64,000 nt of DNA from Halobacteriales archaeon QS_6_71_20. GTDB taxonomy: Archaea > Halobacteriota > Halobacteria > Halobacteriales > Haloferacaceae. The notes beneath the pieces are model-generated. The model was not told where the DNA came from and did not search any database. It saw only the letters and a list, made by a program, of their open reading frames with translations. This document shows, piece by piece, positions 35,801-60,901 of the stretch. The stretch covers positions 72,947-136,946 of the forward strand of contig PXRU01000003.1 in assembly GCA_003020945.1 (NCBI GenBank), in the 5' to 3' direction. Each line of letters begins with the position of its first letter. Position 1 is the stretch's first letter. Position numbers and translations under genes: made by a program.

Positions 35801-37180
35801 ATGTCGAACGAGCGAGACCATCCCAACCACCCGAGTGTGGACCAATCGGATCGGACCGTTCCGAGGAATCTACGGCAAACCGGCGACCCGAACATCGAGA
35901 TGCTGATGTCGACGCGCGTCCGCAAGTCGCCCTTCTTCCACAAGTCGTTCAACGAGAACGGCGCGTGGCGCTGTACCGTCTACAACCGCATCTATCATCC
36001 GCGCGGACTCGTCGAACCCGAAGACGGCGGCGCGATGGCCGAGTACGAGGCGCTGACCAACGCCGTCACGCTGTGGGACGTGGCCGTCGAGCGGCAGATC
36101 CGCGTGAAGGGGCCCGACGCCGAGGCGCTCACCGACTACGTCGTCACCCGTGACGTGACGGGCATGGACCCGATGGACGGGAAGTACGTCATCCTCTGTA
36201 ACGAGGACGGCGGCGTCCTCAACGACCCGGTGTTGCTCCGGCCCGAGGAAGACGAGTTCTGGTTCTCCATCTCCGACTCGACCCTGATGCAGTGGCTCCA
36301 GGGCGTCAACGTCGACAACGAGTTCGACGTCGAGATCGACGAGATCGACGTCGCCCCGATGCAGATCCAGGGACCGCTCTCCGAGGACGTCATGATCGAC
36401 GTCGTCGGCGAGGAGGTACGCGACATCGCCTACTACGGGCTGATGGAGGCCGAGGTCAACGGCTGTGAGGTGCTGATCAGCCAGACCGGCTTCTCCGGCG
36501 AGAAGGGCTTCGAGATCTACGTCAAGGACGCACAGAAGAACGCCGAGCGGGTGTGGGACCCGGTCCACGACAGCGTCGTCGACCACGGCGGGATGCAGAT
36601 CGCTCCCGGTCACCACCGCCGCATCGCCGCGGGTATCATGTCGTGGGGACAGGACCTCGACCACGAGACCTCGCCGTTCCAAGTCAACCTCGGCTACCAC
36701 GTCCCGGACGACAAGGAGGCCGACTACATCGGCAAGGAGGCGCTGGAGGAACAGAAAGAACGGATCGAGAACGGCGAGTATCCGTTCACGCACAAGCTCA
36801 TCGGCCTGAAGATGGCCGGCGAGCCGATCCGCGATTACGCGCCGGACTTCTGGCTCATCTCCGACCCGGAGACGGGCGAGGAGTGCGGCTACCTCACCTC
36901 GCCGTGGTGGAACCCGGACCTCGAGACCAACATCGGCATGGGGTTCGTCCCGGCCGAGAAGATCGAGGAAGTGACCGATACGCCGCTCAACGACGAGATC
37001 TACGACGAGGAGCTGGACCTGGAGTTCCGGGTCCACCTCCCCGACGAGTACTCCGAGGAGCCCGGCGAGCCGACGTTCGCGACGGCCGCGACGGTGCCGT
37101 TCAAGGAGTCGGTCAATCCGAGCGCCCGCGAGCAGGCGAAGCTGAACGCCCGCAAGGAAGCAGAGCAGAGCAGCGACTGA
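35801..37180 (+). CDS. Stand-alone GcvT-family THF-dependent methyltransferase, DmdA-like
   Basis: STRVRKSPF, TVYNR, LWDVAVERQ..GPDA, GGVLNDPV, SISDS, TGFSGEKGFE, RRIAAG..SWGQD. Confidence 0.85.
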   Translation: MSNERDHPNHPSVDQSDRTVPRNLRQTGDPNIEMLMSTRVRKSPFFHKSFNENGAWRCTVYNRIYHPRGLVEPEDGGAMAEYEALTNAVTLWDVAVERQIRVKGPDAEALTDYVVTRDVTGMDPMDGKYVILCNEDGGVLNDPVLLRPEEDEFWFSISDSTLMQWLQGVNVDNEFDVEIDEIDVAPMQIQGPLSEDVMIDVVGEEVRDIAYYGLMEAEVNGCEVLISQTGFSGEKGFEIYVKDAQKNAERVWDPVHDSVVDHGGMQIAPGHHRRIAAGIMSWGQDLDHETSPFQVNLGYHVPDDKEADYIGKEALEEQKERIENGEYPFTHKLIGLKMAGEPIRDYAPDFWLISDPETGEECGYLTSPWWNPDLETNIGMGFVPAEKIEEVTDTPLNDEIYDEELDLEFRVHLPDEYSEEPGEPTFATAATVPFKESVNPSAREQAKLNARKEAEQSSD

Positions 37181-37272
37181 ACGGCGACCGAACAGCGTCG
37201 CACACTCCTCTCTTTTTCGACGACACCGCGAGCACCGCCGGAGTGATTACGTCGCGTACACTCCCGTCGACT

Positions 37273-37833
37273 GTGACTTACGGCGACCGAACGGTAGAGA
37301 CGTTCCTGACGGAGCTCGCGGCCGAGGCGGTGCCTCCCGCCGGCGGCACCGCGACGGCCGTCGTGGGTGCGGGGGGCGCGTCGCTCTGTGAGATGGTCGC
37401 CCGTCACGCCGACGGAGACGTTCGCGTCGACGGATCGACGGCACGGGCGACGCTCGACGCGCGGCGAGCGCGACTGCTCACGCTCGCGGACGCGGACGCG
37501 GCGGTGGTCGACGCTCTGTTCGCCGGCGACGGCGGCCCGCGGGAGCGCAAGCGCGCCGTCGGCGTCCCGCTGGCGATCGCGGAGGCGTGCGGTGACGTGC
37601 TGGCGGTCGGAGCCGCGGTCGTCGAGCAGGGCGAGGGACCGGTCGTCGCCGACGCGGTCACGGGTGTGTTCCTCGCTCACGGGGCGTTGCGCGCGGCGCT
37701 GTTCACGCTCCGGACGAATCTCTCGTCGGTCGCAGACGAGTCGTTCGTCGCAGAGACGGATCAGCGAGCGGCGGAGCTGGAGGCGGCGGCGGTGACGGCG
37801 TTCGCGCGGGCGACGGACGGCGTCGGCGGGTGA
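37273..37833 (+). CDS. Formiminotetrahydrofolate cyclodeaminase/cyclohydrolase family protein
   Basis: TVETFLTELAAEAVPPAGGTATAVVGAGGASLCEMVAR; GTG start inferred. Confidence 0.8.
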   Translation: MTYGDRTVETFLTELAAEAVPPAGGTATAVVGAGGASLCEMVARHADGDVRVDGSTARATLDARRARLLTLADADAAVVDALFAGDGGPRERKRAVGVPLAIAEACGDVLAVGAAVVEQGEGPVVADAVTGVFLAHGALRAALFTLRTNLSSVADESFVAETDQRAAELEAAAVTAFARATDGVGG

Positions 37834-37838
37834 GTCGG

Positions 37839-39086
37839 CTACTCGTACAGCGGGAACTCGTCGGTGAGTTCGTCGACCCGCGTCGCGACCCCTTCGACGG
37901 TGGCGTCGTCCTCCGGCGCGTCCACGACGCGGGCGATGAGGTCGGCCACCTCGCGGCAGGCGGCTTCGTCGAAGCCGCGGGTGGTGAGGCCGGGCGTACC
38001 GGCGCGGATGCCCGAGGGATCGAACGGTGAGCGCGTCTCGCCGGGTACCGTGTTCGCGTTCAGGACGATGTCGGCCCGCTCCAGCGCTTCCTCGGCCGTG
38101 CCGCCGGTCGTGTCGGGATGGGAGGGCCGGAGGTCGACCAACACGAGGTGGGTGTCGGTGCCGCCGGAGACGATCTCGAAGCCGTGCTCGTGGAGTCGGT
38201 CGGCGAGCGCCCGAGCGTTGGCGACGGTCTGTCGGGCGTACTCCTCGAACTCGGGCGTGAGCGCCTCCTTGAAGCCGACGGCCTTGCCCGCGACGTTGTG
38301 CATCGCCGGGCCGCCCTGCGCGCCGGGGAAGACGGCGCTGTCGACGTCGTCGGCGTGCTCCTCGTCGCACATGATGATCCCTCCTCGTCCCGCGCGGACG
38401 GTCTTGTGCGTCGACCCGGTGACGAAGTCCGCGACGCCGACCGGCGACCGGTGGACGCCGGCCGCGACGAGGCCGGTGATGTGCGCGATGTCCGCCAGAT
38501 GGTACGCGTCGACCGCGTCGGCCGCTTCCTGAACCCGCTCCCACTCCACTTCGCGGGGGTACGCCGAGTAGCCCGACACGACGATGTCGGGGTCGAACGC
38601 CTCCGCGTGCTCGCGCAGGCCGTCGTAGTCGACGTAGCCGGTCTCCGGGTCGACCTCGTACTGTTCCACCTCGTAGGTCTGACCGGCGAAGTTCGCCGGG
38701 TGGCCGTGCGAGAGGTGGCCGCCGTGGGTCAGGTCAAGCGAGAGGATCTTGTCGCCCGGATCGAGCACCGCGAGGTAGACGCTCATGTTCGCCTGCGACC
38801 CGGAGTGGGGCTGGACGTTGACGTGCTCGGCACCCCACAGCTCCTTCGCGCGTTCGATGGCGGCGGTCTCGACCTCGTCGGCGAACTCGCAGCCGCCGTA
38901 GTAGCGCTCGCCGGGATATCCCTCGGCGTAGTTGTTCGTCAGCTCCGAGCCCTGCGCCGCCATCACGGCCTCGGAGACGTGGTTCTCGCTCGCTATCATC
39001 GCCAGCGTGTCCTCCTGTCGACGGCGCTCGCCGGCGAGCGCGTCGGCGACGGTCGGGTCCGTCTCTCGGACTGTCTCGTACACCAT
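37839..39086 (-). CDS. glyA: Serine hydroxymethyltransferase
   Basis: IASEN, YAEGYPGERYYGG, NVQPHSGSQAN, STHKT. Confidence 0.97.
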   Translation of the reverse strand: MVYETVRETDPTVADALAGERRRQEDTLAMIASENHVSEAVMAAQGSELTNNYAEGYPGERYYGGCEFADEVETAAIERAKELWGAEHVNVQPHSGSQANMSVYLAVLDPGDKILSLDLTHGGHLSHGHPANFAGQTYEVEQYEVDPETGYVDYDGLREHAEAFDPDIVVSGYSAYPREVEWERVQEAADAVDAYHLADIAHITGLVAAGVHRSPVGVADFVTGSTHKTVRAGRGGIIMCDEEHADDVDSAVFPGAQGGPAMHNVAGKAVGFKEALTPEFEEYARQTVANARALADRLHEHGFEIVSGGTDTHLVLVDLRPSHPDTTGGTAEEALERADIVLNANTVPGETRSPFDPSGIRAGTPGLTTRGFDEAACREVADLIARVVDAPEDDATVEGVATRVDELTDEFPLYE

Positions 39087-39232
39087 ACCCGTGTCAGGGA
39101 CCGGAATCAGATAAAGCGGCCGCCGGCACGACCTACCACGTCCGTGACTGGATGTGTCCTCGGTGTATGACTGGACGCTCCCGTCCGGCAGCGATCGGCG
39201 TTCGGATTACTTTGATATGGGATCGCATACAG

Positions 39233-40561
39233 ATGTCAACAACCATGTCCGAACGGACGAGGCGGCGGATGCTGAAGCGACTCGGAGCCGGCGGGACCGT
39301 CGGGGTCGTCTCCCTGGCCGGGTGTGCCCAGCAGGAGGAAGGCGGCGGCGGCGAGACCGACACCGGCGGCGGCGAGACCGACACTGACGGCGGCGGCGGC
39401 AGCGACGACTCCGGCGGCGACGAGTCGATCACCATCGGGACGATATTCCCGGTCACGGGGACCAACAGCGCCTACGGCGGGGGCCACCAGGAGGCGGCGA
39501 ACCTGGCGGTCGAGGAGATGAACGATGCCGGCGGGCCGCTGGACCGCGAGGTCGACATCGTCAACCGCGACACGGAGGGGAACCCCTCGCGGGCGGCCCA
39601 GAAGTTCCGGACGATGATCAACGAGGAGGGGATCGTCGGCCTGGTCGGTCCCTACTCCAGCGGCATCGGGACCACGCTGGCCCCGGTCGCCCGCGACAAC
39701 CGCGTGATGGAGGTCAGCAACGGCAACACCTCGCCCGCGCTTGCGACGGCCGGCGTCAACGAGGAAAACGATGTGAAGTACTACGGCCGGACCTCGCCGA
39801 ACGACGTCCAGCAGGCGCTGGTGATGGGCCGTATTCTGAACCAGCGGGTGGAGGCGGAGACCGCGTCGTTCCTCTACGTCGACAACCCGTACGGTCAAGG
39901 GCTCGCCGAGCGAGCGAGCGAGAACTTCGACGGGGAGACGCTCGATCTGGTGGGTTACTCCAAGCAGACCAACGACTACACGTCGACGCTGGACGCCGTC
40001 TTCGAGGGGGATCCGGACGCCGTCGGCGCGGTGATGTATCCCGGAAACGGTCGCACGATCCTGAACCAGTGGGACCAGGGCGGCTACGGGGGCCAGTGGG
40101 TCGCCGCGGAGGCCATCCTCTCGCCACAGCTACTGTCGGACCTCTCGGACATCGTCGAAGGGATGTTCATCACCTCCCCGCAGACCGCGAACAGCGAGAC
40201 GTTCATCGACAACATGGGCGGCGAGGAGGCAGTCACCCAGTTCGCGCCCCACGCCTACGACGCGACCTACTTGGAGGGGCTGGCGCTCCAGCGGGCCGGC
40301 GAGGCCAGCGGGACCGCCATCGCGGAGAACATCCGGAGCGTCTCGCGGGGCGACGGCACGACGGTCGGCGTCGGCGAGTTCCAGGCCGGGAAGGAAGCCC
40401 TGGCCGACGGCGAGTCGATCAACTACGAAGGTACCTCCGGCTCGGTCGACCTGAACGAGAACCTCGAACCGGTCGTGCCGTACCGCATCCTGCAGGCCTC
40501 CGACGGCGAAGCCGAGGTCATCGAGGAGGTGCCCCTGAGCTACTTCGAGGGCAAGATGTAG
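39233..40561 (+). CDS. Liv-type ABC transporter substrate-binding lipoprotein (Tat)
   Basis: RRRMLK twin-Arg, LAGC lipobox, type I periplasmic-binding fold motifs. Confidence 0.92.
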   Translation: MSTTMSERTRRRMLKRLGAGGTVGVVSLAGCAQQEEGGGGETDTGGGETDTDGGGGSDDSGGDESITIGTIFPVTGTNSAYGGGHQEAANLAVEEMNDAGGPLDREVDIVNRDTEGNPSRAAQKFRTMINEEGIVGLVGPYSSGIGTTLAPVARDNRVMEVSNGNTSPALATAGVNEENDVKYYGRTSPNDVQQALVMGRILNQRVEAETASFLYVDNPYGQGLAERASENFDGETLDLVGYSKQTNDYTSTLDAVFEGDPDAVGAVMYPGNGRTILNQWDQGGYGGQWVAAEAILSPQLLSDLSDIVEGMFITSPQTANSETFIDNMGGEEAVTQFAPHAYDATYLEGLALQRAGEASGTAIAENIRSVSRGDGTTVGVGEFQAGKEALADGESINYEGTSGSVDLNENLEPVVPYRILQASDGEAEVIEEVPLSYFEGKM

Positions 40562-40636: not shown

Positions 40637-41839
40637 ATGGGCATCGAGATCGAACCGGAGTGGCAGCCGGCGACCAAGCTGAACGTCGTCGGCGGGGCGC
40701 TCGATTTCACGTCGGTGGAGCCGATCCCGGACGGCGTCACCCGAGACCGGATCGAGGAGATCTGCTACACGATACGGGAACTGTACGGCGAGTACGTCGA
40801 CGAATTCGTCGCCGAGACCGACCTCTCCCGACGGGAGGCACAGACTTGGGTGCTCCGGACGCTCGCCCACCAGGGAACCGACCGCCTCTCCTACGAGGCC
40901 GTCGGGCTGTACATCTGGGCCATCGGCCGGGCGACCGAGGGGGACCCGCTCTCCCGGACGATCGTCACGGACTACTACGAGCGGGCCGAGCGGAAGATCG
41001 AGCGCGCCGAGGCGACCCTCAAGCGGGCCGGGCCGCCGCCGTACCCCGACGACGTGTACGACGACCCCGCCGTTCTCTGGGTGGACGCGCCCGTCGCCGA
41101 CCGGCTCCGGGAGCGTCGCCAACCCGAGGAGACGTACAGCGACGTGATCAAGCGGCTGCTGGACGGGACGACGGCGGGGCTGTCGCTGGCCGAACTGATC
41201 GAGACCTACCGGTCGGAACGGGGCTCCGACTACGTCGCCGTCGAGACGGTGTACCCGGAGTGGGACCACGAGTTCCGACTGGTCGTCGGCGTCGACGAAC
41301 CGGGGGCGACCCCGGCCGCCGTCGAGAGAGCGACGGCCCTCCGGGTCGGCGACGAGCCGCGAGCGTTCACCGTCGACGAGACGACGGAGCCGACGCACGC
41401 CGACGCGCACCTCGTCGGCTTCGCCGACACCGCCGACCTGTCGGTGCCCGTCGAGGACGGCGTCGAGACGGTTCGACGGGCGCTGGCGGGCGTCGAGCGC
41501 ACGCTACCGGAACTGGTCGACGACCTCCGATCCGCCGGCGGGACGGCGCTGGCCGTCGCCGACGAGCCCGCGGGTGCCGGCGCGAACCTCCACCCGGTGT
41601 TCCCGGAGTCGGCACCCGCGGACGCGCTGGCGCATCTCGAACGGCTGGCCCTCGACGACCGGACGCTGTCCGTCGGTCGGGTGTCGCCGGTCGACGCCGA
41701 GAAATACCGGGGATCGGACCACGAGACGACGCTGTTGTGGGCGGGCGACGGGGGCGACCTCGGTCGCCGCCCTCTCCCCGACGATCCCGCCGAGCGGCGC
41801 GAACTGTTCCCGGCGCGGGTGCTCGCAACGAGCACCTGA
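40637..41839 (+). CDS. Conserved haloarchaeal hypothetical protein
   Basis: 400-aa acidic ORF; LSRREAQ HTH-like and ETYSDVIKRLLD RHH-like segments. Confidence 0.7.
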   Translation: MGIEIEPEWQPATKLNVVGGALDFTSVEPIPDGVTRDRIEEICYTIRELYGEYVDEFVAETDLSRREAQTWVLRTLAHQGTDRLSYEAVGLYIWAIGRATEGDPLSRTIVTDYYERAERKIERAEATLKRAGPPPYPDDVYDDPAVLWVDAPVADRLRERRQPEETYSDVIKRLLDGTTAGLSLAELIETYRSERGSDYVAVETVYPEWDHEFRLVVGVDEPGATPAAVERATALRVGDEPRAFTVDETTEPTHADAHLVGFADTADLSVPVEDGVETVRRALAGVERTLPELVDDLRSAGGTALAVADEPAGAGANLHPVFPESAPADALAHLERLALDDRTLSVGRVSPVDAEKYRGSDHETTLLWAGDGGDLGRRPLPDDPAERRELFPARVLATST

Positions 41840-41868
41840 TCTCAGTGTGCGCGGTACGCACCGGCCCG

Positions 41869-42576
41869 TCAGCCACCCAGATACAACTCCCGAACCTCCT
41901 CGCTCTCCAGCAGCTCCTTACCGGTTCCCTCGTACCGGTTCTCCCCCATATCCAGCACGTACCCCCAGTCCGAGACCGAGAGAGCCTGCTGTGCGTTCTG
42001 CTCGACCATGAGGATGGCCGTCTCCGTCTCGTCGCGGATGCCGACCAGCCGGTCGAACATGTCGTCGACGAGGTCCGGCGCGAGACCGGCGGACGGCTCG
42101 TCGACGAGGATCAGGCCGGGGTCCAACATCAGCGCCGACGAGAGCGCGAGCATCTGCTGTTGCCCGCCGGACATCGCCCCGGCCTTCTGGTGCTGGCGCT
42201 CCCGGAGAACCGGGAACCGGTCGAACGCGGCTCGGAAATCCTCCTCGCGGGGGTCGGCGTCGATGTAGGCCCCCATCTCCAGGTTCTCCCTGACCGTGAG
42301 GTTCGGGAAGACGTTCTCGCGTTGCGGGACGTAGCAGAGCCCCTGCTCTGTCACCTCGTCGGCCCGCAGGTCGGTTATCTCCCGCCCCTCGAAGGTGACC
42401 GTCCCCGACCAGCAGTCGATGAGTCCGTAGATGGCCTTCATCAGCGTCGACTTCCCCGCACCGTTCGGGCCGATGACCGTGACGATCTCCTCCTCGCCCA
42501 CGTCGACGTCGACGCCGTGGAGTATCTCTGCGTCGCCGTAGCCGGAGACCACGTCCCGAGCTTCCAGTAGCGACAT
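41869..42576 (-). CDS. Liv-type ABC ATP-binding protein (LivF-like)
   Basis: GPNGAGKST, MSGGQQQM, LVDEPSAGL. Confidence 0.95.
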   Translation of the reverse strand: MSLLEARDVVSGYGDAEILHGVDVDVGEEEIVTVIGPNGAGKSTLMKAIYGLIDCWSGTVTFEGREITDLRADEVTEQGLCYVPQRENVFPNLTVRENLEMGAYIDADPREEDFRAAFDRFPVLRERQHQKAGAMSGGQQQMLALSSALMLDPGLILVDEPSAGLAPDLVDDMFDRLVGIRDETETAILMVEQNAQQALSVSDWGYVLDMGENRYEGTGKELLESEEVRELYLGG

Positions 42577-42577
42577 C

Positions 42578-43546
42578 TCAGTCCACCCCCAGATAGGCGT
42601 CGACGACGCGCTGGTTCCGCCTGATCTCCTCGGGCGGTCCCTGAACGAGCTTCTTCCCCTCGTTCATCACGACGATGGTGTCGGAGAGGTTCATGATGAC
42701 CTCCATGTCGTGTTCGACGATACAAAACGTGTACCCCTCGTCCCGAAGCGTCTCGATACGGTCCATCAGCTTCTCGGTCAGCGCCGGGTTGACGCCGGCG
42801 ACCGGCTCGTCCAGCAGGACGAGCTGCGGGTCGAGCATGAGGACCCGTCCCAGCTCCAGGAGCTTTCGCTGGCCGCCGGAGAGGTTGCCCGCCCGCTCGT
42901 CGGCGACGTGATCGATCTCCAGCAGCTCCAGCATCCCGGTGGCCCGGTCGTACAGGTCGGCCTCCTCGCGAGCGACCGCGCCGCGTCGGAGCCACGCGTT
43001 CACGAGGTTCTCGCCGGACTGTGCCTGCGGCGCGAGCATCAGGTTCTCGCGGGCGGTCATATCCCCCAGTTCGCGGGTGATCTGGAAGGTTCTGGCCAGC
43101 CCCTCGCGGGCCAGCATGAACGGGCGGCTGTTCTTGTGGCCGTCGTAGGCCTGCTTGGCTGCCTCCTGTCCGACGTACAGCCCCGCGCCGAGTCCCGTTC
43201 CGACCGCGCCCACCCCGAGACTCGCCGCGGTGCCGAGTCCGGCCAGTCCGAAGGCCGCGACGCCGCCGAGGCTGCCGAACGTGAGCCCCGAGGCCCCGCC
43301 CCAGACCAGCCGCTCGTCGCTGCTGGGAGCCATTAGATCCTGAAGCTCCCGGCCGTCGTAGCGGACGGTCCCGCCGTCCGGCTCGTAGAAGCCGCTGATG
43401 AGATTGAACGTCGTGGTCTTGCCCGCGCCGTTCGGGCCGATGAGGCCCGTTATCGATCCCGACTCGATGTCGAAGGTCGCGCCGTCGACGGCGACGATAC
43501 CGCCGAAGCTCTTCCGGAGTTCCTCGACTTCGAGGATAGCACTCAT
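42578..43546 (-). CDS. Liv-type ABC ATP-binding protein (LivG-like) with a hydrophobic insertion
   Basis: GPNGAGKTT, LSGGQRK, LLDEPVAG, IVEHD; ~65-aa Gly/Ala/Leu insert after Walker A. Confidence 0.92.
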   Translation of the reverse strand: MSAILEVEELRKSFGGIVAVDGATFDIESGSITGLIGPNGAGKTTTFNLISGFYEPDGGTVRYDGRELQDLMAPSSDERLVWGGASGLTFGSLGGVAAFGLAGLGTAASLGVGAVGTGLGAGLYVGQEAAKQAYDGHKNSRPFMLAREGLARTFQITRELGDMTARENLMLAPQAQSGENLVNAWLRRGAVAREEADLYDRATGMLELLEIDHVADERAGNLSGGQRKLLELGRVLMLDPQLVLLDEPVAGVNPALTEKLMDRIETLRDEGYTFCIVEHDMEVIMNLSDTIVVMNEGKKLVQGPPEEIRRNQRVVDAYLGVD

Positions 43547-51897: not shown

Positions 51898-52291
51898 ACT
51901 ACCCCGTCCTACTCGCTCCCTCCCGCCTTGCGGCGGTCGGTCACTCCTTGAGGACGGGGCTTTACCGAAGCGACATTTGCCCCGCGACCTCATGCGGTTC
52001 GAGAGAGCTTCGCTCTCTCGTCGTCACGAAAGGCGCGAAGCGCCTTTCGAACGGCATGGACGCGGCCCGGCTTCCTCCTGCCGTTCCACGGTGGAGGCGG
52101 CGGGTCGGAGCAGTGCTGCGACCCACGCTTCCCGGACCTGTGCCGTGGACTGTCCCGCCGGTTTGATTCCCGGTGTTCTCGCGCTCCATCCCCAAGCGGG
52201 GAACGGGAGTCCACCCCGTTCGCGGTCGTCGTTCCCGAGTATAGGGTGCGACGGCGTTGCCGTCGCACCGCGGGTGCCAGTTTACTCGTGG
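51894..52291 (-). ncRNA. Putative OMEGA (omega/reRNA-like) scaffold; strand inferred
   Basis: Run of perfect hairpins (52000-52020, 52027-52049, 52201-52221, 52245-52269) ending in the RE hairpin with a GCAA loop on minus. Confidence 0.5.
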
Positions 52292-53442
52292 AGAGCGTGT
52301 CATAGAATAGTTCTCGCACCCTTCGAGTGACGATCCGATGAGCGGTAAATACAGGAGGTGTACGTAACAGGCCTGGTCACTCCGTTGACTTAGAAGGTTG
52401 TCTTTGAATGTCGATTGTCACTGGCCGAGCGTCTCGTCTCATGTGTCTGTATCCGAGCGCGATTAGTATTCCAGAGACCGCAGCAACCGGGACAAATGAC
52501 GGGACTGCGGACGGATCGAAGGGCACCACCGTGGCGTTGCCGAACCCGTGAACGAAGCCGGCGTACCACACGTTCTGCGTCAGATAGTAGATGACACCGT
52601 AGGTGATCCCCGGAATTAGGTTCCCCAGGATGATCAACGGGATCGCGGTTGGGGGTACGCCTTCCAGCAATAGCCCGATGGGAATATGCGCGACGCCGAA
52701 CAAGACCGCTCCACCGAGAATCCCGACTGTGGCGGACAGTCCATGCGAGCGAGAACTCACAAGCGCGGTACATTTGTTCTGCACGTATCCCCGGAAGACG
52801 AACTCCTCAGTGAGCCCGTTCGAGACGGTGAGTGTGAGTAGAAACCAGATCGGAACCCAGTACCACGGCATATCGAAGGCAAAGCCGAGTTGTGCGGTCG
52901 CTCCCGTGACGACGAGATATCCCACGCCGACGATGCTAACCCATCCCCAGAGGACTCCGAACGCGACGACCGCGGGCAGGAACGTCGATCTACTGAGGCC
53001 GACAGCGGACGCTGAAACGCCCTCATACCGAAGCACGCCCCAAGTACCAAGAATGAGAATCAGCATGAACGGAAAGCTTAGGATGGCCGACAGATGTTTC
53101 GGATATTCCGACGACTCAGGGCCCAAAACCGCCGTGTGAGCGGTCACCGAGGCAGCCGCGACAATACTCACGAATGAAACGAGCGCAACGAGAGGGACCA
53201 AACTGGGAATGAAACGGAGGTGACGTGGTGATGTGCTCATGCGTCTGTGGTCTCGACAGTAGAGTAATAAAATATTTCGAGGATAGATGAGGAAGCTGTT
53301 AACTTCTGTAATCATCAGCGAGGACCTGCTGGTCACCTCGGAACCCACTACTGGCTTGGTAAGTTCACAATCCCGCGTAACGGTTGATATACTCTGTCTC
53401 GTGTGAAAGGAACTGCTGTGTGAACCCTTCTATGACACGCTC
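52292..53442. mobile_element. TIR-bounded non-autonomous mini-transposon carrying a passenger gene
   Basis: 26-bp TIRs (22/26 match, outer 15 bp perfect: GAGCGTGTCATAGAA) at 52293-52318 and 53417-53442; direct repeat CGTGG at 52287-52291 and 53443-53447. Confidence 0.85.
52377..53240 (-). CDS. CPBP/CAAX-family intramembrane glutamic metalloprotease
   Basis: EEFVFRGY, FGVAH, HGFGN motifs; multi-TM; visibly AT-richer than the flanks. Confidence 0.9.
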   Translation of the reverse strand: MSTSPRHLRFIPSLVPLVALVSFVSIVAAASVTAHTAVLGPESSEYPKHLSAILSFPFMLILILGTWGVLRYEGVSASAVGLSRSTFLPAVVAFGVLWGWVSIVGVGYLVVTGATAQLGFAFDMPWYWVPIWFLLTLTVSNGLTEEFVFRGYVQNKCTALVSSRSHGLSATVGILGGAVLFGVAHIPIGLLLEGVPPTAIPLIILGNLIPGITYGVIYYLTQNVWYAGFVHGFGNATVVPFDPSAVPSFVPVAAVSGILIALGYRHMRRDARPVTIDIQRQPSKSTE

Positions 53443-53790
53443 CGTGGCACCTACTATCCCGAACTTACACCGGGGTAGTAGTGTTCAGAAAATAGCCGGA
53501 AGAAAGCTAATTCTTTCGATACCGACGGTTGCCCGGATGATGACGGCGATCCCTCTCCTCCCTACTCGCGCCTTCGGCGCTCGTTGAGGAAGGAGGCTCC
53601 TCGCGTATGAACGCTGAGTCGTATCGCCCGCCTGTCAGGCTGTGGGCGTGGGCGGGCGGTCGCGGGCGTGACACCGCGACGGATGGCTTTCGGACGAAAC
53701 GCCACGTAGAACAGTTCTCGACGCAGTTTTCGGTGATTCGACACCCGCTTTACCGGTGTATTTATCCCCGCGACAACCGCGGAACGTGCC

Positions 53791-56343
53791 ATGAGCGGTG
53801 GAAAACTCCCTACGAAGGCGGAGACGGTGGTCATCGGTGCCGGCGCCGTCGGCTGTAGCGTCGCCTACCATCTGACCGAACTCGGCGCGGAGGACGTGGT
53901 CGTCGTCGATCAGGGACCGCTCCCGGTCACGGGCGGGTCGTCCGTCCACGCGCCGGGTATCGTGTTCCAGACGTCCCCCTCGAAGATACAGACGAAGGCC
54001 GCCTACTACACCAGTCGGCTGCTGTCGGACGCCGGCGTGTACGACGAGGTCGGCGGCATCGAGGTCGCCCGCAGCGAGGAGCGGATGGACTTCCTCCGCC
54101 GGCGCGTGGAGTGGGCGACGGCCTACGGCCTACCGGAGCCACAGCTGCTCTCGCCGGAGGAGGTCACCGACCGCCTCCCGATGGTCGACGAGTCGGAGAT
54201 ACTCGGCGGCTACTACTCGCCGACGGACGGCCGCGTCGACGGCATCGGCGCGCTCCAGTGGTACATGGAGCAGTCGCCGGCCGCCTTCTACGGAGAGACG
54301 GAGGTCGAGGACATCGACGTGGCGGGCGGCGAGGTGAACGCGATCGAGACCGACCGTGGACGCATCGACTGCGAACGGTGCGTCATCGCCACCAACAACT
54401 GGGGCTACCAGACCGGGCAGCTGGCGGGACTCGATCTACCCATCGCGCCGGTCGAACACCAGTACGTCGTCACGGAGCCGATGGACGAGCTCGCGGGGTT
54501 CGACACTTCCGTCGGCGACAACACAACCGGATTGGACGTGCCCGGCGACCGCTCCATCGCCGAGTACATGAGCGAGGGGCCGACGCTCCCCGTCGGCCGG
54601 GACCAGGACCACTCGCTGTACTTCCGCAACCACGGCGACGCGCTCGGCATGGGGTCGTACAACCACGAGACGCTCTCGGTCGACCCCGAAGCGATGGGGA
54701 CGAACAGCGAGCAGCGACAGGCCTCCGTCAGGGGGTTCTCGCGGGAGCACTGGGAGCGGCCCACCCACCGCGGCCGCGACAAGTCCGCCAAGCGGGCGTT
54801 CGACGAACTCCTCCCGGCCACCGAGGACGTCGAGTACGAGGCGACGGAGAACGGCATCTTCGTGTTCACGCCCGACGGGATGCCCGCCGTCGGCCCGACC
54901 GCGGCCGTCGACGGGCTGTGGACAGGGCTCGCCGTCTGGTGGACCCACTCGGGCGGCTACGGTCGCATCCTCGCCGAGTGGATGGAGAACGGCGTCCCGC
55001 GGCTCCCCTCGGGACCGGTGGACACGGGCGGCATCCACGTCCGCCGGTTCGGCCCCCACGCCGGCGAGAAGGACTACTTCGTCGACCGCGGGGGGAGACG
55101 CTACGAGCAGGTGTACAGCATCGTCGAGCCGCGCTGGCAGCCCGACGACCACCGCGGCCTCCGGACGAGTCCGTTCTACCACCGTCAACAGGAGTTGGGC
55201 GCGGAGTTCTATCAGGCGGGCGGCTGGGAGTCGCCGCAGTGGTACGAGTCGAACGCCGACCTCGTCGACCGCTACGCGAACCGGATCCCCGAACAGGACG
55301 GCTGGCAGGCGATCAACCGCTCGGAGATCGAGGCGGCCGAACATCTCCACACCCGCGAGCAGGTCTCGATGTTCGACATGACCACGTTCTCCTCGATCAT
55401 GGTGGAGGGGCCGGACGCGGAGGCGTATCTCCAGCGGGTCTGCTCGAACGACGTGGCCATCGACGAGGGGCAGGTGCGCTACTCGCTGCTGTTGAACGAG
55501 GGCGGCGGCATCCTCGCGGACGTGACGGTCGTCCGGCTGGACGACGAGCGGTACATGATGACGACCGGCGGCGGCAACTCGCCGGGCATCCACGGCGGCT
55601 GGCTGGCCGACCACGCCCCCGAGACCGTCTCCGTCCACGTCGAGGAAGGCGCGAAGTCGACCATCGGGTTGTGGGGGCCGAAGTCGCGGCTCCTGCTCCA
55701 GCGGTGTACGGACGCCGACGTGACGAACGAGGGGTTCCCGTACTTCACGGCGAAGCGGATCTACGTCGGCGAGGTGCCGGTCGTCGCGCTCCGTGTCTCC
55801 TACGTGGGTGAACTCGGCTGGGAGCTGTGGGCCCCGACCGAGTACGGCCGGCGGCTCTGGGACACCCTCTGGGAGGCGGGGCAGGACCTCGACGTGCGGC
55901 CGATGGGCGGCGGCGCGCTGAGTTCGATGCGGCTCGAGAAGGGGTTCCGGCTGTGGGGGACGGATATCGACACGGACGCCAACCCCTTCGAGGCCGGTCT
56001 CCCCTTCGCCGTCGACATGGACACCGACTTCGTCGGCAAGGACGCGCTGGAGGCCGCCCGCGCCGACGGGGTCGACAGCCGAGCGACGCCGCTCACGCTC
56101 GACAACTCGACCGACATCATGCTGAGTGGCCGACCCGTCCTGAAAGACGGCGAGGCCATCGGCTACGTGCAGGCCGGGAACTACGGCTACACGATCGGCG
56201 AATCCATCGCGTACACCTACGTGCCGAGCGAGCACGCCGAGGCCGGCACCTCGGTCCGGATACGGTGTGAGGGCGAGACGTATGACGCGACGGTTCGGGA
56301 CGAGCCGCTGTTCGACCCCGGCCGTGAGAAGATCCTTCGATGA
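53791..56343 (+). CDS. DMG/sarcosine dehydrogenase-like FAD/THF protein (paralog 2, intact)
   Basis: GAGAVG, GGSSVHAPG, FDMTTFS, RVSYVGELGWE, RLEKGFRLWG, EPLFDP. Confidence 0.93.
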   Translation: MSGGKLPTKAETVVIGAGAVGCSVAYHLTELGAEDVVVVDQGPLPVTGGSSVHAPGIVFQTSPSKIQTKAAYYTSRLLSDAGVYDEVGGIEVARSEERMDFLRRRVEWATAYGLPEPQLLSPEEVTDRLPMVDESEILGGYYSPTDGRVDGIGALQWYMEQSPAAFYGETEVEDIDVAGGEVNAIETDRGRIDCERCVIATNNWGYQTGQLAGLDLPIAPVEHQYVVTEPMDELAGFDTSVGDNTTGLDVPGDRSIAEYMSEGPTLPVGRDQDHSLYFRNHGDALGMGSYNHETLSVDPEAMGTNSEQRQASVRGFSREHWERPTHRGRDKSAKRAFDELLPATEDVEYEATENGIFVFTPDGMPAVGPTAAVDGLWTGLAVWWTHSGGYGRILAEWMENGVPRLPSGPVDTGGIHVRRFGPHAGEKDYFVDRGGRRYEQVYSIVEPRWQPDDHRGLRTSPFYHRQQELGAEFYQAGGWESPQWYESNADLVDRYANRIPEQDGWQAINRSEIEAAEHLHTREQVSMFDMTTFSSIMVEGPDAEAYLQRVCSNDVAIDEGQVRYSLLLNEGGGILADVTVVRLDDERYMMTTGGGNSPGIHGGWLADHAPETVSVHVEEGAKSTIGLWGPKSRLLLQRCTDADVTNEGFPYFTAKRIYVGEVPVVALRVSYVGELGWELWAPTEYGRRLWDTLWEAGQDLDVRPMGGGALSSMRLEKGFRLWGTDIDTDANPFEAGLPFAVDMDTDFVGKDALEAARADGVDSRATPLTLDNSTDIMLSGRPVLKDGEAIGYVQAGNYGYTIGESIAYTYVPSEHAEAGTSVRIRCEGETYDATVRDEPLFDPGREKILR

Positions 56344-57587
56344 CCGCCTCCGGATCCGACGGCGTCGGCGTGTCGTACGCCGACATCGAGCGGGCCCGCG
56401 AACGGCTCGACGACGACCGGGTCGTGAAGCGGACGCCCGTCGAGGAGAGCACGTCGCTGGGCGAGTTCGTCGGCGGCGAGGTTCACCTGAAGCTGGAACA
56501 TCTCCAGTGGACGGGGTCGTTCAAGACCCGCGGCGCGTACAACAAGATCAGTCAGGACGTGGCGGCGGGCGTCGACGAGTTCGTCGCCGCGAGCGCCGGC
56601 AACCACGCACAGGGAGTCGCGCTCGCGGCTGCCGAGTGCGGGGCCGAGTCGACCATCTGCATGCCGAAGGGCGCGCCGCAGGCGAAGGTCGACGCCACCC
56701 GCGACTACGGCGCGACGGTCGAACTCGTCGGGGAGGACTTCCGCGAGACGATGGACCACGCCCAGTCGCTCGTCGAGGAGTCCGACGCGGAGTTCGTTCA
56801 CGCCTACGACGACCCGGACATCATCGCCGGACAGGGGACGCTCGGCATCGAGATGTATCACGACTGTCCGGACGTCGACGCCGTCGTCGTGCCCATCGGC
56901 GGCGGCGGCCTCATCGGCGGCGTCTCGACGGCGATCAAGCATCTCTCGCCGGAGACCCGGATGATCGGCGTGCAGGCGACGGGCGCGGAGACGGTCCACG
57001 AGAGTCTGGACAAGGGGATGCCCGTCGCGCTCGACGAGGTGGACACCATCGCGGACGGCATCGCCACGGGCGGTATCTCGGAGCGAACGCTGGAGATCAT
57101 CGAGCGAAACGTCGACGAGGTGGTCACCGTCTCGGACGCCCAGATCGCCCGCGCCATCCTCCTGCTGCTGGAGCGGGCAAAGCAGGTCGTCGAGGGGGCC
57201 GGCGCCGCGTCCGTCGCGGCCGTTCTGAGCGACGACGTGAACGTCGAGGGCGAGACGGTGATGCCGCTGCTGTGCGGCGGTAATCTCGACATGACGATGA
57301 TGCGTACGCTGGTGGTCAACGCGCTCACCGACCGCAAGCAACTGCTCCAGTTGCGCGTGCGCATCGACGACAAACCGGGGACGATGGCGGAGTTGTCGGG
57401 CATCGTCGGCGCGCACGGCGCGAACATCCACACCGTCCGCCACGACCGCGCGGTCGGCGATCTGGCCGTCGGCGAGGCGTATCTCGTCTTCAACGTCGAG
57501 ACGGCCGGCGCGAAGCAGGCCGCGTCGATCATCGACGACATCGAGCGGGCCGGCTACCCGGTCGAGGACGTCAGCGACCCCGCGTAG
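56340..57587 (+). CDS. ilvA: Threonine/serine ammonia-lyase with a C-terminal ACT domain
   Basis: TGSFKTRGA, SAGNHAQG, PIGGGGL, DKPG ACT; ATGA overlap with the upstream gene. Confidence 0.93.
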   Translation: MTASGSDGVGVSYADIERARERLDDDRVVKRTPVEESTSLGEFVGGEVHLKLEHLQWTGSFKTRGAYNKISQDVAAGVDEFVAASAGNHAQGVALAAAECGAESTICMPKGAPQAKVDATRDYGATVELVGEDFRETMDHAQSLVEESDAEFVHAYDDPDIIAGQGTLGIEMYHDCPDVDAVVVPIGGGGLIGGVSTAIKHLSPETRMIGVQATGAETVHESLDKGMPVALDEVDTIADGIATGGISERTLEIIERNVDEVVTVSDAQIARAILLLLERAKQVVEGAGAASVAAVLSDDVNVEGETVMPLLCGGNLDMTMMRTLVVNALTDRKQLLQLRVRIDDKPGTMAELSGIVGAHGANIHTVRHDRAVGDLAVGEAYLVFNVETAGAKQAASIIDDIERAGYPVEDVSDPA

Positions 57588-57639: not shown

Positions 57640-57746
57640 GGGTGGGACTGAAAGGGGCCGGGCGCTACGGGAAGCACGGCGAAGTAAGCACCGCAGCCCG
57701 ACCGAAGGGAGCGCGAGACGCGCGACCGTAGCGTCCGGGGGCTTTC
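57640..57746 (+). repeat. REP-like structured repeat, copy C
   Basis: GGGTGGGACTGAAAGGGGCC...AAGCACCGCAG...GGGGGCTTTC; inverted repeat 57658-57670/57726-57738. Confidence 0.8.
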
Positions 57747-57858
57747 TACACCACGGTGGCGGCTCAGTCTCCACTATCATCCGTATCTGAACACGACCAT
57801 AGTGACGGTGGTGTTCAAATAAGACCGTACGAGCCGCCATAGACAGTGTGACCAGTTT

Positions 57859-57968
57859 GGAAGCCCCCGCCGGCTCGACTTCCGGGCCTCGCTGTGGTCC
57901 TCGGCCTTGGTCCGCAGTCCTTGCGTCGTCCGGGTTCGTCGAGCCGGCGGCCCCTTCCGGTCCCACCC
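57859..57968 (-). repeat. REP-like structured repeat, copy D
   Basis: GGGTGGGACCGGAAGGGGCC...AAGGACTGCGG...GGGGGCTTCC on minus; perfect 13-bp inverted repeat 57867-57879/57938-57950. Confidence 0.8.
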
Positions 57969-58071
57969 GACCGCACTCGCTCGGTCAGCTATCGCCCATC
58001 CGAACACCACCGTAGCGGGCGGGCAAAGCTACTTGACCCCGGTCCGGATGATCTCGAAGCGGGCTTCACGG

Positions 58072-58515
58072 ATGTACGACGAGATACTCATCCCGTACGA
58101 CGGGAGCGACGAGGCGCGGAAGGGGGCGCGACACGGCGTCGAACTGGCGGCCGCACTCGGGTCGGCGGTCCACGCGCTGTACGTGATCGACCTTCCGGGC
58201 GCACCGCGGGCGATGGCGCTGCGCGACGACGAGGACGAGATGCGCGAGCGCTACCGCGAGTACGGCGAGGAGGTGCTCGAAGAGGTGGCAAACATGGCGG
58301 CGGAACACGGCGTCGACTGCTCGGCGACCATCCGAAGCGGGTCCGTGAGCGAGGAGATCGTCGATTACGCCGACGAGGCGGGAACGAACGCTATCGTCAT
58401 GGGGTCGGCCTACCGTGGCAAACTCGGAAACATCCTCGGCGGCGCCGCCGACAGGGTGGTTCGGAGCGCGACGGTGCCGGTCATCACCCATCGGATGCGC
58501 GTCGACGAGATCTGA
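58072..58515 (+). CDS. Universal stress protein (UspA)
   Basis: ILIPYDGS, IVMGS, LGGAADRVVRSATVPV. Confidence 0.93.
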   Translation: MYDEILIPYDGSDEARKGARHGVELAAALGSAVHALYVIDLPGAPRAMALRDDEDEMRERYREYGEEVLEEVANMAAEHGVDCSATIRSGSVSEEIVDYADEAGTNAIVMGSAYRGKLGNILGGAADRVVRSATVPVITHRMRVDEI

Positions 58516-58595
58516 TACTGCCTCCGTGTCCGCTCGGGCGCGACCGTACGCCTCCGTGCGGTCAGCCGGTCCATAGAGCCGTCGATCGCCGTCGC

Positions 58596-58757
58596 TCACT
58601 CGTCCAGCAGATACGTCTCTCGAAGGTAGATGGTGAGGCTGGCACACAGGAAGCTGAACCCCGCCGCGCGGAACGACCCGACCGTCATCCCGAACAGCGC
58701 GGCACCGAAGAGGAGAACCGCGAGCAGGGCCGCCGCGGTCGCCGAGACGTTTCGCAT
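58596..58757 (-). CDS. Small two-TM membrane protein (53 aa)
   Basis: MRNVSATAAALLAVLLFGAALFGMTVGSFRAAGFSFLCASLTIYLRET. Confidence 0.55.
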   Translation of the reverse strand: MRNVSATAAALLAVLLFGAALFGMTVGSFRAAGFSFLCASLTIYLRETYLLDE

Positions 58758-59137
58758 ATCTCGCGTCACCAAACTGCCGATGTAAAGAGTGTCGGCTCGG
58801 GCGGCGATCCGCGACGCGCGCCGCTCCGGCAAACACAACCGGTAATCTTTCTGTTATTTCGTCACACGAACGAACCGCACCCTCGGAGGAAACGTGTCCA
58901 CACTGATCACGCGGACGAAAACAGCCGGTCTGACGGCGTCTCGTGCCGGTGTGTGGCGGATCCTTCGCAGCGTTCGGGCAAGGTTTAACAATGCATCCTC
59001 CTATGGTGGGGGTGAAGTTGTGTATAGTTAGCACGAATCAACTACGGAGGCGGCGACGCCCGTAGCGACGCGAGCGTACGCGCACGGACGTAGACACACC
59101 ATGCACACGACCGAACACGGCCGGACGGGAGGATCGT

Positions 59138-60901
59138 ATGTCAAACGGTGACGATACCACGGGCGAGATATCCGACGGATTGCAGGTGGAGCTGTTCCAC
59201 CCGGAATCCGACCGAGAGCCGGGCGATACGAACATCCAGCGGTTCGGCTTCGACATCCATCCCGTCGTCTTCCCGATCGCGCTGGTGACCATCGGGGCGT
59301 TCATCGCGATCACCCTTCTCGGGCCGCAGTTCGGGTTCGACATCGCCGGCGCGTACACCTGGCTGTTCGAGTGGATCGGCAGCACCTTCGGGTGGTTCTA
59401 CCTCCTGGCGGTGAACGCCTTCATCGTCGTCCTGCTGTACTTCGCGTTCAGCAAGTACGGCAACATCAAGATCGGCGGCGTCGAAGCCGAAAAGGAGTTC
59501 AGCGACTTCTCGTGGATGGCGATGCTGTTCAGCGCGGGCATGGGGATCGGTCTCATGTTCTTCAGCGTCTCCGAGCCGTTGTACTACCTACAGACGCCGC
59601 CGAGTTTCTTCGGCGTCGAGGCCGGAACCGGCGCGGCCGGCGCGGCAGCGATGGCACAGACGTTCTTCCACTGGGGCTTCCATCCGTGGGCCGTCTACGG
59701 GCTGGTCGGGCTCGGGCTGGCGTTCTTCTCGTTTAATCGTGGGCTCCCGCTCACCTTCCGGTCGATATTCTGGCCGCTGCTCGGCGACCGTATCTACGGG
59801 TGGCCGGGCCACCTGATCGACCTCGTGACGGTGTTCGCGACGCTGTTCGGCCTCTCGACGTCGTTAGGGCTGGGCGTCGCACAGGTGAACACCGGACTCT
59901 CGTACGTGCTCGGGGGTGAGATGCTCGGGATCGCCAGTATTCCGACCGGCACTATTCCGCAGGTCCTGCTCATCGCAGCGATCACTGGCATCGCGACGCT
60001 GTCCGTTGCGGCAGGGCTCGACGGTGGGGTCAAACGATTGAGTACTCTGAACCTCTACATAATGTTCAGCCTGCTCGGCTTCCTGCTCGTCGTCGGCCCG
60101 ACGGTCTACATCTTCGGCGCGTGGGTCGAGGGGCTCGGCATGTACCTGCAGAACGTCATCGGGCTGGGCTTTTTCACCGGGACGCTCGGCGCGGCGGCCA
60201 ACGGGACGCCGACCGCGTGGACCGTCTTCTACTGGGGCTGGTGGATAGCGTGGTCGCCGTTCGTCGGCATGTTCATCGCGCGTATCTCGAAGGGACGGTC
60301 CGTCCGGGAGTTCATCCTGGGCGTCCTGTTCCTGCCCGCGCTGTTCTCGACGCTGTGGCTGTCGACGTTCGGTGGCTCGGCGCTGTTCAATTCGCTGGCC
60401 GGCAACGGCGCGGCGATGGCGACCTACAACGAGGTCGGACAGACCGTCGCGATGTTCGCCGTGCTCCAGCAGTTTCCGCTCGGCGCGGTGTCGGGGCTGC
60501 TGGCGACGCTTCTGGTCATCACGTTCTTCGTCACCTCCTCCGACTCGGGGTCGCTGGTCATCGATCACCTGACCTCCGGCGGGAAACACGACGTGCCGAA
60601 GACCCAGCGCATCTTCTGGGCGGTCACCGAGGGCGTGGTCGCTTCGCTGCTGCTCGTCGGCGGCGGGTTGTCGGCACTCCAGACGGCGGCCATCACGACG
60701 GGGCTGCCGTTCGCGTTCATCCTCTGTCTGATGTGTTACACCGTGTATCTCGGGCTCGACAACGAGTACGAGATACTCGAGTCGGAGGCGTTCGCGGAGC
60801 GCATCCAGGACATGACCGTGGAGGACGATATGGACGTAGTCACCGCCGGCGACGAGATGGTGACCGACATCAGAGAGGAGGACACGACGAGCAGCGACTG
60901 A
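59138..60901 (+). CDS. BCCT-family (betaine/choline/carnitine) transporter
   Basis: SWMAMLFSAGMGIGLMF, FHWGFHPWAVY, WTVFYWGWWIAWSPFVGMFIARISKGR, FFVTSSDSG. Confidence 0.96.
   Translation: MSNGDDTTGEISDGLQVELFHPESDREPGDTNIQRFGFDIHPVVFPIALVTIGAFIAITLLGPQFGFDIAGAYTWLFEWIGSTFGWFYLLAVNAFIVVLLYFAFSKYGNIKIGGVEAEKEFSDFSWMAMLFSAGMGIGLMFFSVSEPLYYLQTPPSFFGVEAGTGAAGAAAMAQTFFHWGFHPWAVYGLVGLGLAFFSFNRGLPLTFRSIFWPLLGDRIYGWPGHLIDLVTVFATLFGLSTSLGLGVAQVNTGLSYVLGGEMLGIASIPTGTIPQVLLIAAITGIATLSVAAGLDGGVKRLSTLNLYIMFSLLGFLLVVGPTVYIFGAWVEGLGMYLQNVIGLGFFTGTLGAAANGTPTAWTVFYWGWWIAWSPFVGMFIARISKGRSVREFILGVLFLPALFSTLWLSTFGGSALFNSLAGNGAAMATYNEVGQTVAMFAVLQQFPLGAVSGLLATLLVITFFVTSSDSGSLVIDHLTSGGKHDVPKTQRIFWAVTEGVVASLLLVGGGLSALQTAAITTGLPFAFILCLMCYTVYLGLDNEYEILESEAFAERIQDMTVEDDMDVVTAGDEMVTDIREEDTTSSD

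Follow-up and report, generated by a model that had tools for sequence, protein, structure and literature searches.

The 64,000-nucleotide stretch of DNA analysed here (the window) derives from Halobacteriales archaeon QS_6_71_20 and carries, in its second half, an island of genes that may jointly serve the catabolism of a methylated osmolyte, with glycine betaine as the favoured substrate. The window comes from contig C3 of a 32-contig draft assembly of 2.65 Mb (93.9% complete) and has a GC content of about 0.68. Genes were called via third-position GC and named from Pfam and NCBIfam profiles, and the Protein Data Bank (PDB) was used to find solved relatives. The island opens with an HTH_10 (BAT-type) transcription regulator (34352..35410, + strand; PF04967, 59 bits), the true start of which probably lies downstream of 34352, since its orthologues measure about 220 amino acids. 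It is followed by a GcvT-fold protein of 459 amino acids that resembles the dimethylsulfoniopropionate (DMSP) demethylase DmdA (35801..37180, +; PF01571, 140.6 bits, with a weak GCV_T_C match of 22 bits), and by the serine hydroxymethyltransferase GlyA (37839..39086, −; PF00464, 493 bits). Further along lie a divergent MetF of 284 amino acids (46833..47687, −; weak match to PF02219, 46.7 bits) and two flavoenzymes of the dimethylglycine (DMG) oxidase type, denoted DH1 (49317..51897, +), which is disrupted, and DH2 (53791..56343, +), an intact protein of 850 amino acids. The start of the next gene, an IlvA-type threonine/serine ammonia-lyase with an ACT domain (56340..57587, +; TIGR01127, 428 bits against a cut-off of 378.75), overlaps the DH2 stop by 4 nucleotides (nt). 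A BCCT-family transporter (59138..60901, +; PF02028, 579 bits; TIGR00842, 470 bits against a cut-off of 407.55) and a FolC-FolP fusion (62382..63998, −; PF00809, PF02875), which runs off the window end, complete the set. An earlier note on this DNA, made from the sequence alone, had read these genes as a folate-coupled route for the complete breakdown of a methylated osmolyte. The BCCT, DmdA-like, MetF, GlyA and IlvA genes that it named were all confirmed by Pfam and NCBIfam; the FolC-FolP gene is equally real, but is located past position 60901, where the note had let the pathway end.

The grouping of these genes is not a product of chance. The genes within 10 kb of the DmdA-like gene were recorded at 80 species-level loci from Halobacteria, and a MetF-like gene was found at 62 of them, an HTH_10 regulator (upstream of the DmdA-like gene) at 58 and two flavoenzyme genes at 43. 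A 337-amino-acid hypothetical protein is encoded beside the MetF-like gene at 40 loci, and GlyA (27), IlvA (23), BCCT (18), a universal stress protein (Usp; 14), FolD (13), dihydrofolate reductase (DHFR; 9), formate–tetrahydrofolate (THF) ligase (7), FolC-FolP (7) and a creatininase (6) recur at decreasing frequency. The conserved core consists of the HTH_10 regulator, the DmdA-like protein and the divergent MetF, usually accompanied by two DMG-oxidase-like flavoenzymes, GlyA, an IlvA-type dehydratase and a BCCT transporter. Conservation of the neighbourhood across Halobacteria, which had been put forward as a check on the proposal, is thus clearly visible from the frequencies of the MetF-like and flavoenzyme genes. 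Loci of the type found in the window follow the order HTH_10, (DHFR), DmdA-like, (Usp), (GlyA), MetF-like, hypothetical, (AstE/DoeB-like), (creatininase), DH, DH, IlvA. A second layout reads BCCT, IlvA, FolD, DmdA-like, MetF-like, (serine acetyltransferase), with no DH genes nearby. In Haloplanus the order is BCCT, DH, a monomeric sarcosine-oxidase-like gene, DmdA-like, MetF-like and a Rieske oxygenase, so that one of the two flavoenzymes is swapped for the sarcosine-oxidase-like gene at loci of this type. The creatininase gene was seen between the AstE-like and DH genes at six loci (L018:17527-18291 and five others); its position beside the DH genes hints at creatinine or creatine as a possible source of sarcosine for the same flavoenzymes.

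The DmdA-like protein has DmdA as its top match in NCBIfam (NF009133, 244 bits, which is under the equivalog cut-off of 410) as well as in the PDB, where Pelagibacter ubique DmdA (3tfh) scores 144 bits and Thermotoga maritima GcvT 138 bits. In the alignment it shares with DmdA the stand-alone GcvT fold, the N-terminal region and an NDP motif, in place of which GcvT has DDL, and the folate-binding Glu and Tyr are retained. Conversely, the Trp that is named as a DMSP-specific contact of DmdA in PMC7487153 (W171; index 197 of 3tfh) aligns with a Phe (GFSGEKGFEIY). The protein is 74–94% identical across Halobacteria genera and, compared with DmdA, is archaeal and about 90 amino acids longer; its N-terminus is extended and its C-terminal tail acidic. 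Because the NDP motif and the folate-binding residues are kept while the Trp is replaced by Phe and the score falls below the cut-off, it is classed, as judged from sequence, as a methyltransferase-type member of the family and not as a DmdA equivalog. It is a candidate onium-compound:THF methyltransferase that would most likely convert glycine betaine to DMG and 5-methyl-THF. A role in DMSP demethylation is less likely than one with betaine as the predicted donor, since the DmdA equivalog cut-off is failed and the DMSP-specific Trp is absent. The proposed chemistry would be the same as that of DmdA, in which an onium compound donates a methyl group to N5 of THF without net redox change, with the difference that the island's proposed substrate is an N-methyl and that of DmdA an S-methyl compound. 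The genetic context differs accordingly: the island pairs the gene with betaine, DMG and sarcosine genes and a BCCT transporter, not with dmdBCD or acuI.

The MetF-like protein is remote from the familiar methylenetetrahydrofolate reductases (MTHFRs). Its top PDB match is S6MTHFR (7xg9/7xlf; 116 bits over residues 5-278), the sole solved structure that aligns along its full length; the next match reaches 51 bits, and MTHFRs of the E. coli type stay at or below 23 bits. S6MTHFR from Sphingobium lignivorans SYK-6 is the founding member of the type 4 MTHFRs, and oxidises CH3-THF but not NADH (PMC11868366). Enzymes of this type are encoded together with THF-dependent demethylases, e.g. LigM, DesA and Dmt, in a survey that was restricted to bacteria and in which archaea, DmdA and betaine are not mentioned (PMC11868366). 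S6MTHFR has seven signature residues, six of them in three motifs (Leu48-Pro49, Phe215/Cys219 and Pro268-Phe269) besides Arg78. Two of the seven, Pro49 and Phe269, are kept in the haloarchaeal protein, and the remaining five are changed (Leu48 to Ser, Arg78 to Tyr, Phe215 to Ile, Cys219 to Val and Pro268 to Thr). The protein is therefore termed a type 4-like MTHFR and regarded as a candidate 5-methyl-THF oxidiser. The gene is present in single copy and is the only MTHFR gene of the genome. Of 401 sampled Halobacteria genomes, 308 gave no hit to it, and Haloferax volcanii, examined as a control, gave zero matches to the MTHFR family; on the latter ground the MetF-like gene is accessory and tied to the DmdA-like one, and does no class-wide housekeeping. 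The genetic coupling of a GcvT-family THF demethylase to a CH3-THF-oxidising MetF is also the feature common to the LigM/DesA, S6MTHFR and LigH system of SYK-6 and to Dmt with N20MTHFR (PMC11868366). FolD (13 loci) and formate–THF ligase (7 loci) in the Halobacteria neighbourhoods run parallel to the ligM-metF-ligH operon. The substrates of the LigM systems are aryl methyl ethers, in contrast, and the DmdA-like protein is itself remote from LigM (24 bits).

Both flavoenzymes have Arthrobacter DMG oxidase (1pj5) as their top PDB match, with 580 bits against 326 bits for mammalian DMGDH in the case of DH2, and 540 against 304 bits in that of DH1. The four-domain architecture of DMG oxidase (DAO, FAO_M, GCV_T and GCV_T_C) is complete in DH2 only, as DH1 is without GCV_T_C. 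The two DMG/sarcosine dehydrogenase-like genes that had been proposed do exist, then, but their products are closest to the oxidase and not to the dehydrogenases, and one of them is truncated. For the same reason an O2-independent route from end to end, as envisaged in the earlier note, is unsupported. The Arthrobacter cluster reportedly contains GlyA and a serine dehydratase as well, so that serine and then pyruvate would be formed by the same logic as in the island. The island differs from it in having two paralogues of DMG oxidase instead of one such oxidase with a heterotetrameric soxBDAG, in having a pyridoxal phosphate-dependent dehydratase of the IlvA type, and in having an explicit candidate for the step from betaine to DMG (1pj5; Meskys et al. 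2001, as referred to in PMC3102087).

Several of the island's genes are second copies. The housekeeping GlyA is 80% identical to the island protein and is encoded beside FolD on contig C30, FolD being missing from the window; a paralogue of the IlvA-type dehydratase (49% identical) is found elsewhere on C3, and one of FolC-FolP (48% identical) on contig C29. The BCCT gene is present in single copy. Its product scores 496 bits against the betaine equivalog NF047988, under the cut-off of 650, so that betaine is a candidate substrate and not an assigned one.

The distribution of these genes was studied in 401 evenly sampled Halobacteria genomes, of which 89 carry the DmdA-like gene, 93 the MetF-like gene and 88 both. 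DMG-oxidase-like genes occur in 114 genomes. Within this set 45 genomes have the DmdA-like gene only, 40 have a Rieske oxygenase only and a single genome has neither; in total 113 of the 114 possess one, the other or both. Among the 287 genomes without DMG-oxidase-like genes, by comparison, one or both were found in 37. For roughly 20 of the 40 genomes with the Rieske oxygenase only, coordinates place its gene within a few kb of DH genes; in some Haloarcula species it is located within the cluster. Among named proteins this oxygenase is closest to GbcA (about 135 bits, below the cut-off in every case), CntA (6y8j) and Stc2 (3vca). Equivalent positions in Halobacteria clusters are held by it and, in rare cases, by an MtgB-like protein. 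H. volcanii, again as a control, gave a GbcA-like match, and DMG-oxidase-like genes have been reported for it (PMC3102087).

No canonical enzyme for the first demethylation was detected in the window, as the earlier note had reported, and the whole-genome search that it had called for gave the same outcome. BHMT (PF02574) is absent from the window, the window genome and 191 Halobacteria genomes in which this domain and that of MttB were checked; neither the MttB superfamily (PF06253) nor a GbcA-like Rieske oxygenase (NF058607) gave a match in the window or the whole 93.9% complete assembly. The five Rieske-domain proteins of the genome either are without the ring-hydroxylase catalytic domain or are small. 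MttB-family (MtgB-like) genes are carried by 7 of the 191 genomes, 6 of which are without DH genes. One example is Halobaculum gomorrense, from the same genus as the host (G073:C10), in which an intact MtgB-like gene (L174:2306-3787; 363 bits to glycine betaine methyltransferase, 9yce/2qne) is found between formate–THF ligase and FolC-FolP, adjoining DH2 and DH1. No corrinoid protein gene was found near it, and the only B12-binding domain of that genome is encoded on contig C5.

Related gene sets are also found in bacteria. The nearest relatives of the DmdA-like protein outside the haloarchaea are 40–50% identical and come from metagenome bins of Actinomycetota and Gemmatimonadota, where they bear generic names. 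In a comparison set of 80 loci, mostly from soil metagenomes and gathered with the alignment of the DmdA-like family, a MetF-like gene stands beside the DmdA-like gene at 15. At the one such locus for which it was tested (L092), the MetF-like protein again had 7xg9 as its top solved match. Locus L092 and a second one, L093, have the order aldehyde dehydrogenase (with betaine aldehyde dehydrogenase among the top matches), DMGDH-like, DmdA-like and MetF-like, with soxA-soxD-soxB on the opposite strand; L094 combines a ProW/ChoW-like permease, an aldehyde dehydrogenase, a DMGDH-like protein, an electron-transfer flavoprotein and the DmdA-like protein. Clusters of the type of L092–L094 thereby contain a gene for each step from choline to glycine except that from betaine to DMG.

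In combination, these comparisons point to a catabolic island for a methylated osmolyte with glycine betaine as its substrate, a reading for which we estimate a probability of roughly 0.55 from comparative evidence. The more general proposition, that the module couples a methyl-THF-forming demethylase of onium compounds to an oxidising MTHFR, is held with considerably greater confidence. In the proposed pathway, betaine would be imported by the BCCT transporter and the DmdA-like enzyme would transfer one methyl group to N5 of THF, giving DMG and 5-methyl-THF, the latter of which would be oxidised to 5,10-methylene-THF by the divergent MetF. The two DMG-oxidase-like flavoenzymes would then pass the other two methyl groups on as methylene-THF, from DMG via sarcosine to glycine. 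Glycine and methylene-THF would be joined to serine by the extra GlyA, and the extra IlvA-type dehydratase would convert serine to pyruvate and ammonia. The second FolC-FolP, together with DHFR, FolD and formate–THF ligase in relatives, could maintain the folate pool and oxidise surplus one-carbon units. Demethylation by the DmdA-like protein followed by oxidative MetF, already suggested in the earlier note, accordingly has comparative support from the co-occurrence in 88 of 89 carriers, the kinship with S6MTHFR and the 113 of 114 DMG-oxidase genomes, with the substrate itself being a prediction.

The net reaction proposed for the first step, betaine to DMG, is that of BHMT, of GbcAB/BmoAB and of MtgB-MtgC-MtgA. 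Contrary to these, it would need no O2, homocysteine or corrinoid, and the methyl group would go directly to THF. Whether the DmdA-like protein is in fact a glycine betaine:THF N-methyltransferase, working with the type 4-like MetF as a fourth, O2-, corrinoid- and homocysteine-independent route that is interchangeable with the Rieske oxygenase in Halobacteria and shared with soil and marine bacteria, is in our estimate an even bet. A search of the open literature found neither a folate-dependent or GcvT-type betaine demethylase nor this haloarchaeal cluster, apart from a remark of 2011 on four haloarchaea in which BCCT genes have DMG-oxidase-like genes in their vicinity (PMC3102087). The pattern of either, or, and both with the Rieske oxygenase, the MtgB-like minority, the tie to type 4 MTHFRs and the erosion of the island described below are new here.

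A number of observations weigh against betaine as the substrate or against the scheme as a whole. We know of no precedent in the GcvT family for a quaternary amine passing an N-methyl group straight to THF. Characterised DmdA is described in the review PMC5395565 as specific for DMSP-like sulfonium compounds. The retention of two out of seven S6MTHFR signature residues counts on the same side for the MetF-like protein. In 28 of the 114 DMG-oxidase-positive genomes the DmdA-like and Rieske genes are both present, and all 7 genomes with an MttB-family gene have the DmdA-like/MetF-like module as well; in H. gomorrense the DmdA-like enzyme might use another substrate. Furthermore, 16 of the 89 DmdA-like-positive genomes have no DMG-oxidase-like genes, so that the module works even where no further demethylation follows. 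Haloquadratum walsbyi carries the DmdA-like gene (L070, L076), yet its growth was reportedly not enhanced by betaine (PMC3102087). In addition, related Halobacteria genomes are non-independent samples, although the pattern still covers about 30 genera. Finally, complete catabolism may fail in the window genome, as DH1 is frameshifted.

This last point leads to the alternative that fares best: a pathway in decay in this particular genome, with betaine degraded incompletely and at most one or two methyl groups harvested. The island was compared by blastn with that of its nearest relative, Halobacteriales archaeon QH_7_66_36 (locus L172), to which shared segments are 86–96% identical. Relative to its orthologues DH1 has suffered an 80-nt frameshifting deletion near 51688, established by tblastn and alignment, by which the C-terminal barrel domain is lost; the reading frame stays open as far as 51731, and the leftover C-terminus, to which the end ...EPLV* belongs, continues in another frame to 51897. 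Directly after the DH1 frame follows an insertion of 1.7 kb (1724 nt, 51894..53617, no strand), for which L172 has an empty site of 12 nt. Its sole gene encodes a CAAX/CPBP protease (52377..53348, −; PF02517) that is found at none of the 80 related loci, and the insertion is outside the pathway. A third lesion concerns an AstE/DoeB-like deacylase gene, of which blastn against L172 revealed a remnant of 172 nt (48910..49081, no strand). The gene is intact in L172 (L172:2849-3796) and gives an AstE_AspA match in relatives, where it lies between the MetF-linked hypothetical and DH1 (14 of 80 loci). The island is thus partly eroded here by the DH1 frameshift, the loss of the AstE-like gene and the insertion. 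DH1 of QH_7_66_36 (L172:4394-6920) is also split in two frames, near L172:5570, at a site different from the lesion in the window.

The proteins of the island are 93–95% identical to those of genomes from another GTDB family (G156, G066), and the module was found in only one of ten sampled genomes of the same genus. The location of the closest relatives in another family, together with this sparse carriage, suggests that the island was acquired laterally among haloarchaea; the sparse carriage is likewise what a decaying pathway would lead one to expect. On the other hand, QH_7_66_36 is labelled a metagenome-assembled genome and the window genome is a draft in 32 contigs, so that both assemblies look like metagenome bins and the lesions may represent either decay or artefacts of assembly or population. 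Both genomes retain an intact DH2, and the DmdA-like, MetF, GlyA, IlvA and BCCT genes are intact in the window. Arthrobacter DMG oxidase reportedly accepts sarcosine too, and DH2 alone might suffice. Decay to the point of incomplete degradation is consequently taken as a serious contender, with odds of about one in three.

A different quaternary amine as methyl donor, such as choline, proline betaine, carnitine or a trimethylammonium compound, is a less probable alternative, under which the flavoenzymes would be fed via creatinine, creatine and sarcosine or by imported DMG or sarcosine. The frequent presence of creatininase and the AstE/DoeB-like deacylase in window-type clusters would fit such a scheme, as would the score of the BCCT transporter under the betaine equivalog cut-off and the inserted Liv-type transporter, which may import an amino-acid-like substrate. 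The coexistence of MtgB-like and Rieske genes with the module in some genomes also suggests a division of labour. Still, the occurrence of the DmdA-like or the Rieske gene in 113 of 114 genomes is most simply understood if both supply DMG, and the bacterial clusters encode the way from choline to glycine with betaine demethylation as the missing step. Creatininase, moreover, was found at 6 of 80 loci only, and no match to it was seen in the window. We therefore consider another amine unlikely.

Slightly less probable again is a genuine DMSP or sulfonium demethylase, which would form methylmercaptopropionate and 5-methyl-THF and leave the DMG-oxidase-like genes to a separate betaine/sarcosine route. 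In its favour, DmdA is the top match of the protein in both NCBIfam and the PDB. BCCT carriers can take up DMSP, and the 16 carriers without oxidase genes as well as the serine acetyltransferase that neighbours some loci fit a sulfonium substrate. According to PMC5395565, methyl transfer from sulfonium to THF is the only established chemistry of this branch. Against this, 244 bits is far under the DmdA cut-off, the Trp specific for DMSP (according to PMC7487153) is a Phe, and the annotated neighbour families include none of the dmdBCD-type enzymes (acyl-CoA ligase, acyl-CoA dehydrogenase, enoyl-CoA hydratase). The closest non-haloarchaeal relatives reside in choline/betaine-to-glycine clusters of soil metagenomes, and the complementarity with a Rieske oxygenase of quaternary amines points to an N-methyl substrate.

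Very improbable, finally, is a helper role in the manner of a T-protein, in which formaldehyde or aminomethyl groups would be trapped as methylene-THF, with MetF running reductively to provide methyl-THF for methionine during growth on methylated amines: the GcvT fold, the small gap between the T. maritima GcvT and DmdA scores and the status of MetF as the genome's only MTHFR speak for it, but a complete gcvT-gcvH pair exists elsewhere in the genome (contig C8), the flavoenzymes have folate-binding domains of their own, the NDP motif is that of DmdA and not of GcvT, and the MetF-like protein is akin to the oxidising S6MTHFR, remote from NAD(P)H-dependent MTHFRs, and missing from so many genomes that methionine synthesis in the class does not need it.

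Glycine betaine is among the most abundant osmolytes of saline habitats, and its first demethylation is unassigned in many organisms that encode the later steps. Were the betaine reading true, it would broaden the GcvT/DmdA family by a new activity and extend the scheme of a demethylase with a methyl-THF-oxidising MTHFR from the degradation of lignin and herbicides to osmolytes and to archaea. It would also explain the use of betaine by haloarchaea that have no BHMT, GbcAB or MtgB. The 'DmdA-like' genes of metagenomes, often counted as DMSP demethylases or as T proteins of glycine cleavage, would then be read differently.

The remaining features of the island appear peripheral to this scheme. 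Between GlyA and MetF are located a Liv/urea-type periplasmic binding lipoprotein (39152..40561, +; PF13458, 145 bits), an acidic hypothetical protein of 400 amino acids (40637..41839, +) with no family match and a coding-type third-position GC of 0.90, and the LivF, LivG, LivM and LivH genes of an ABC transporter (41869..46733, −; PF00005, PF12399, PF02653), which are co-directional with the MetF-like gene and downstream of it. The Liv-type transporter had been counted as part of the pathway; its genes are present, but with Liv genes, including the binding protein and the 400-amino-acid hypothetical, near the DmdA-like gene at only 3 of 80 loci, it was rejected as a pathway core, and the whole block is a lineage-specific insertion and not a conserved unit. 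The Usp gene (57907..58515, +; PF00582, 93 bits) lies between IlvA and BCCT.

Unassigned open reading frames (40637-41839, 47748-48761, 57894-58988 and others) gave zero family or solved-structure matches in Pfam, NCBIfam and the PDB. A cyclodeaminase, also named in the earlier note, was consequently not recovered in the window, and the two genes of the ornithine-cyclodeaminase family in the genome lie outside it. A k-mer search of the promoter-like gaps of the cluster for a shared operator returned GC-rich matches at chance level only. The same contig carries, 40–50 kb upstream of the window, a further stand-alone gene with a GCV_T domain (G000:C3:19702-20415) and a gene of the ornithine-cyclodeaminase family (C3:31676-32620). 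At 16774-18294 of the window, about 17 kb upstream of the island, there is a gene for an M24 peptidase whose N-terminal domain is of the creatinase/prolidase type. The conserved, strongly acidic hypothetical protein of 337 amino acids (47748..48761, −), for which no Pfam, NCBIfam or PDB match was obtained, has a C-terminal part that looks helix-turn-helix-like by eye, and the protein is possibly a regulator.

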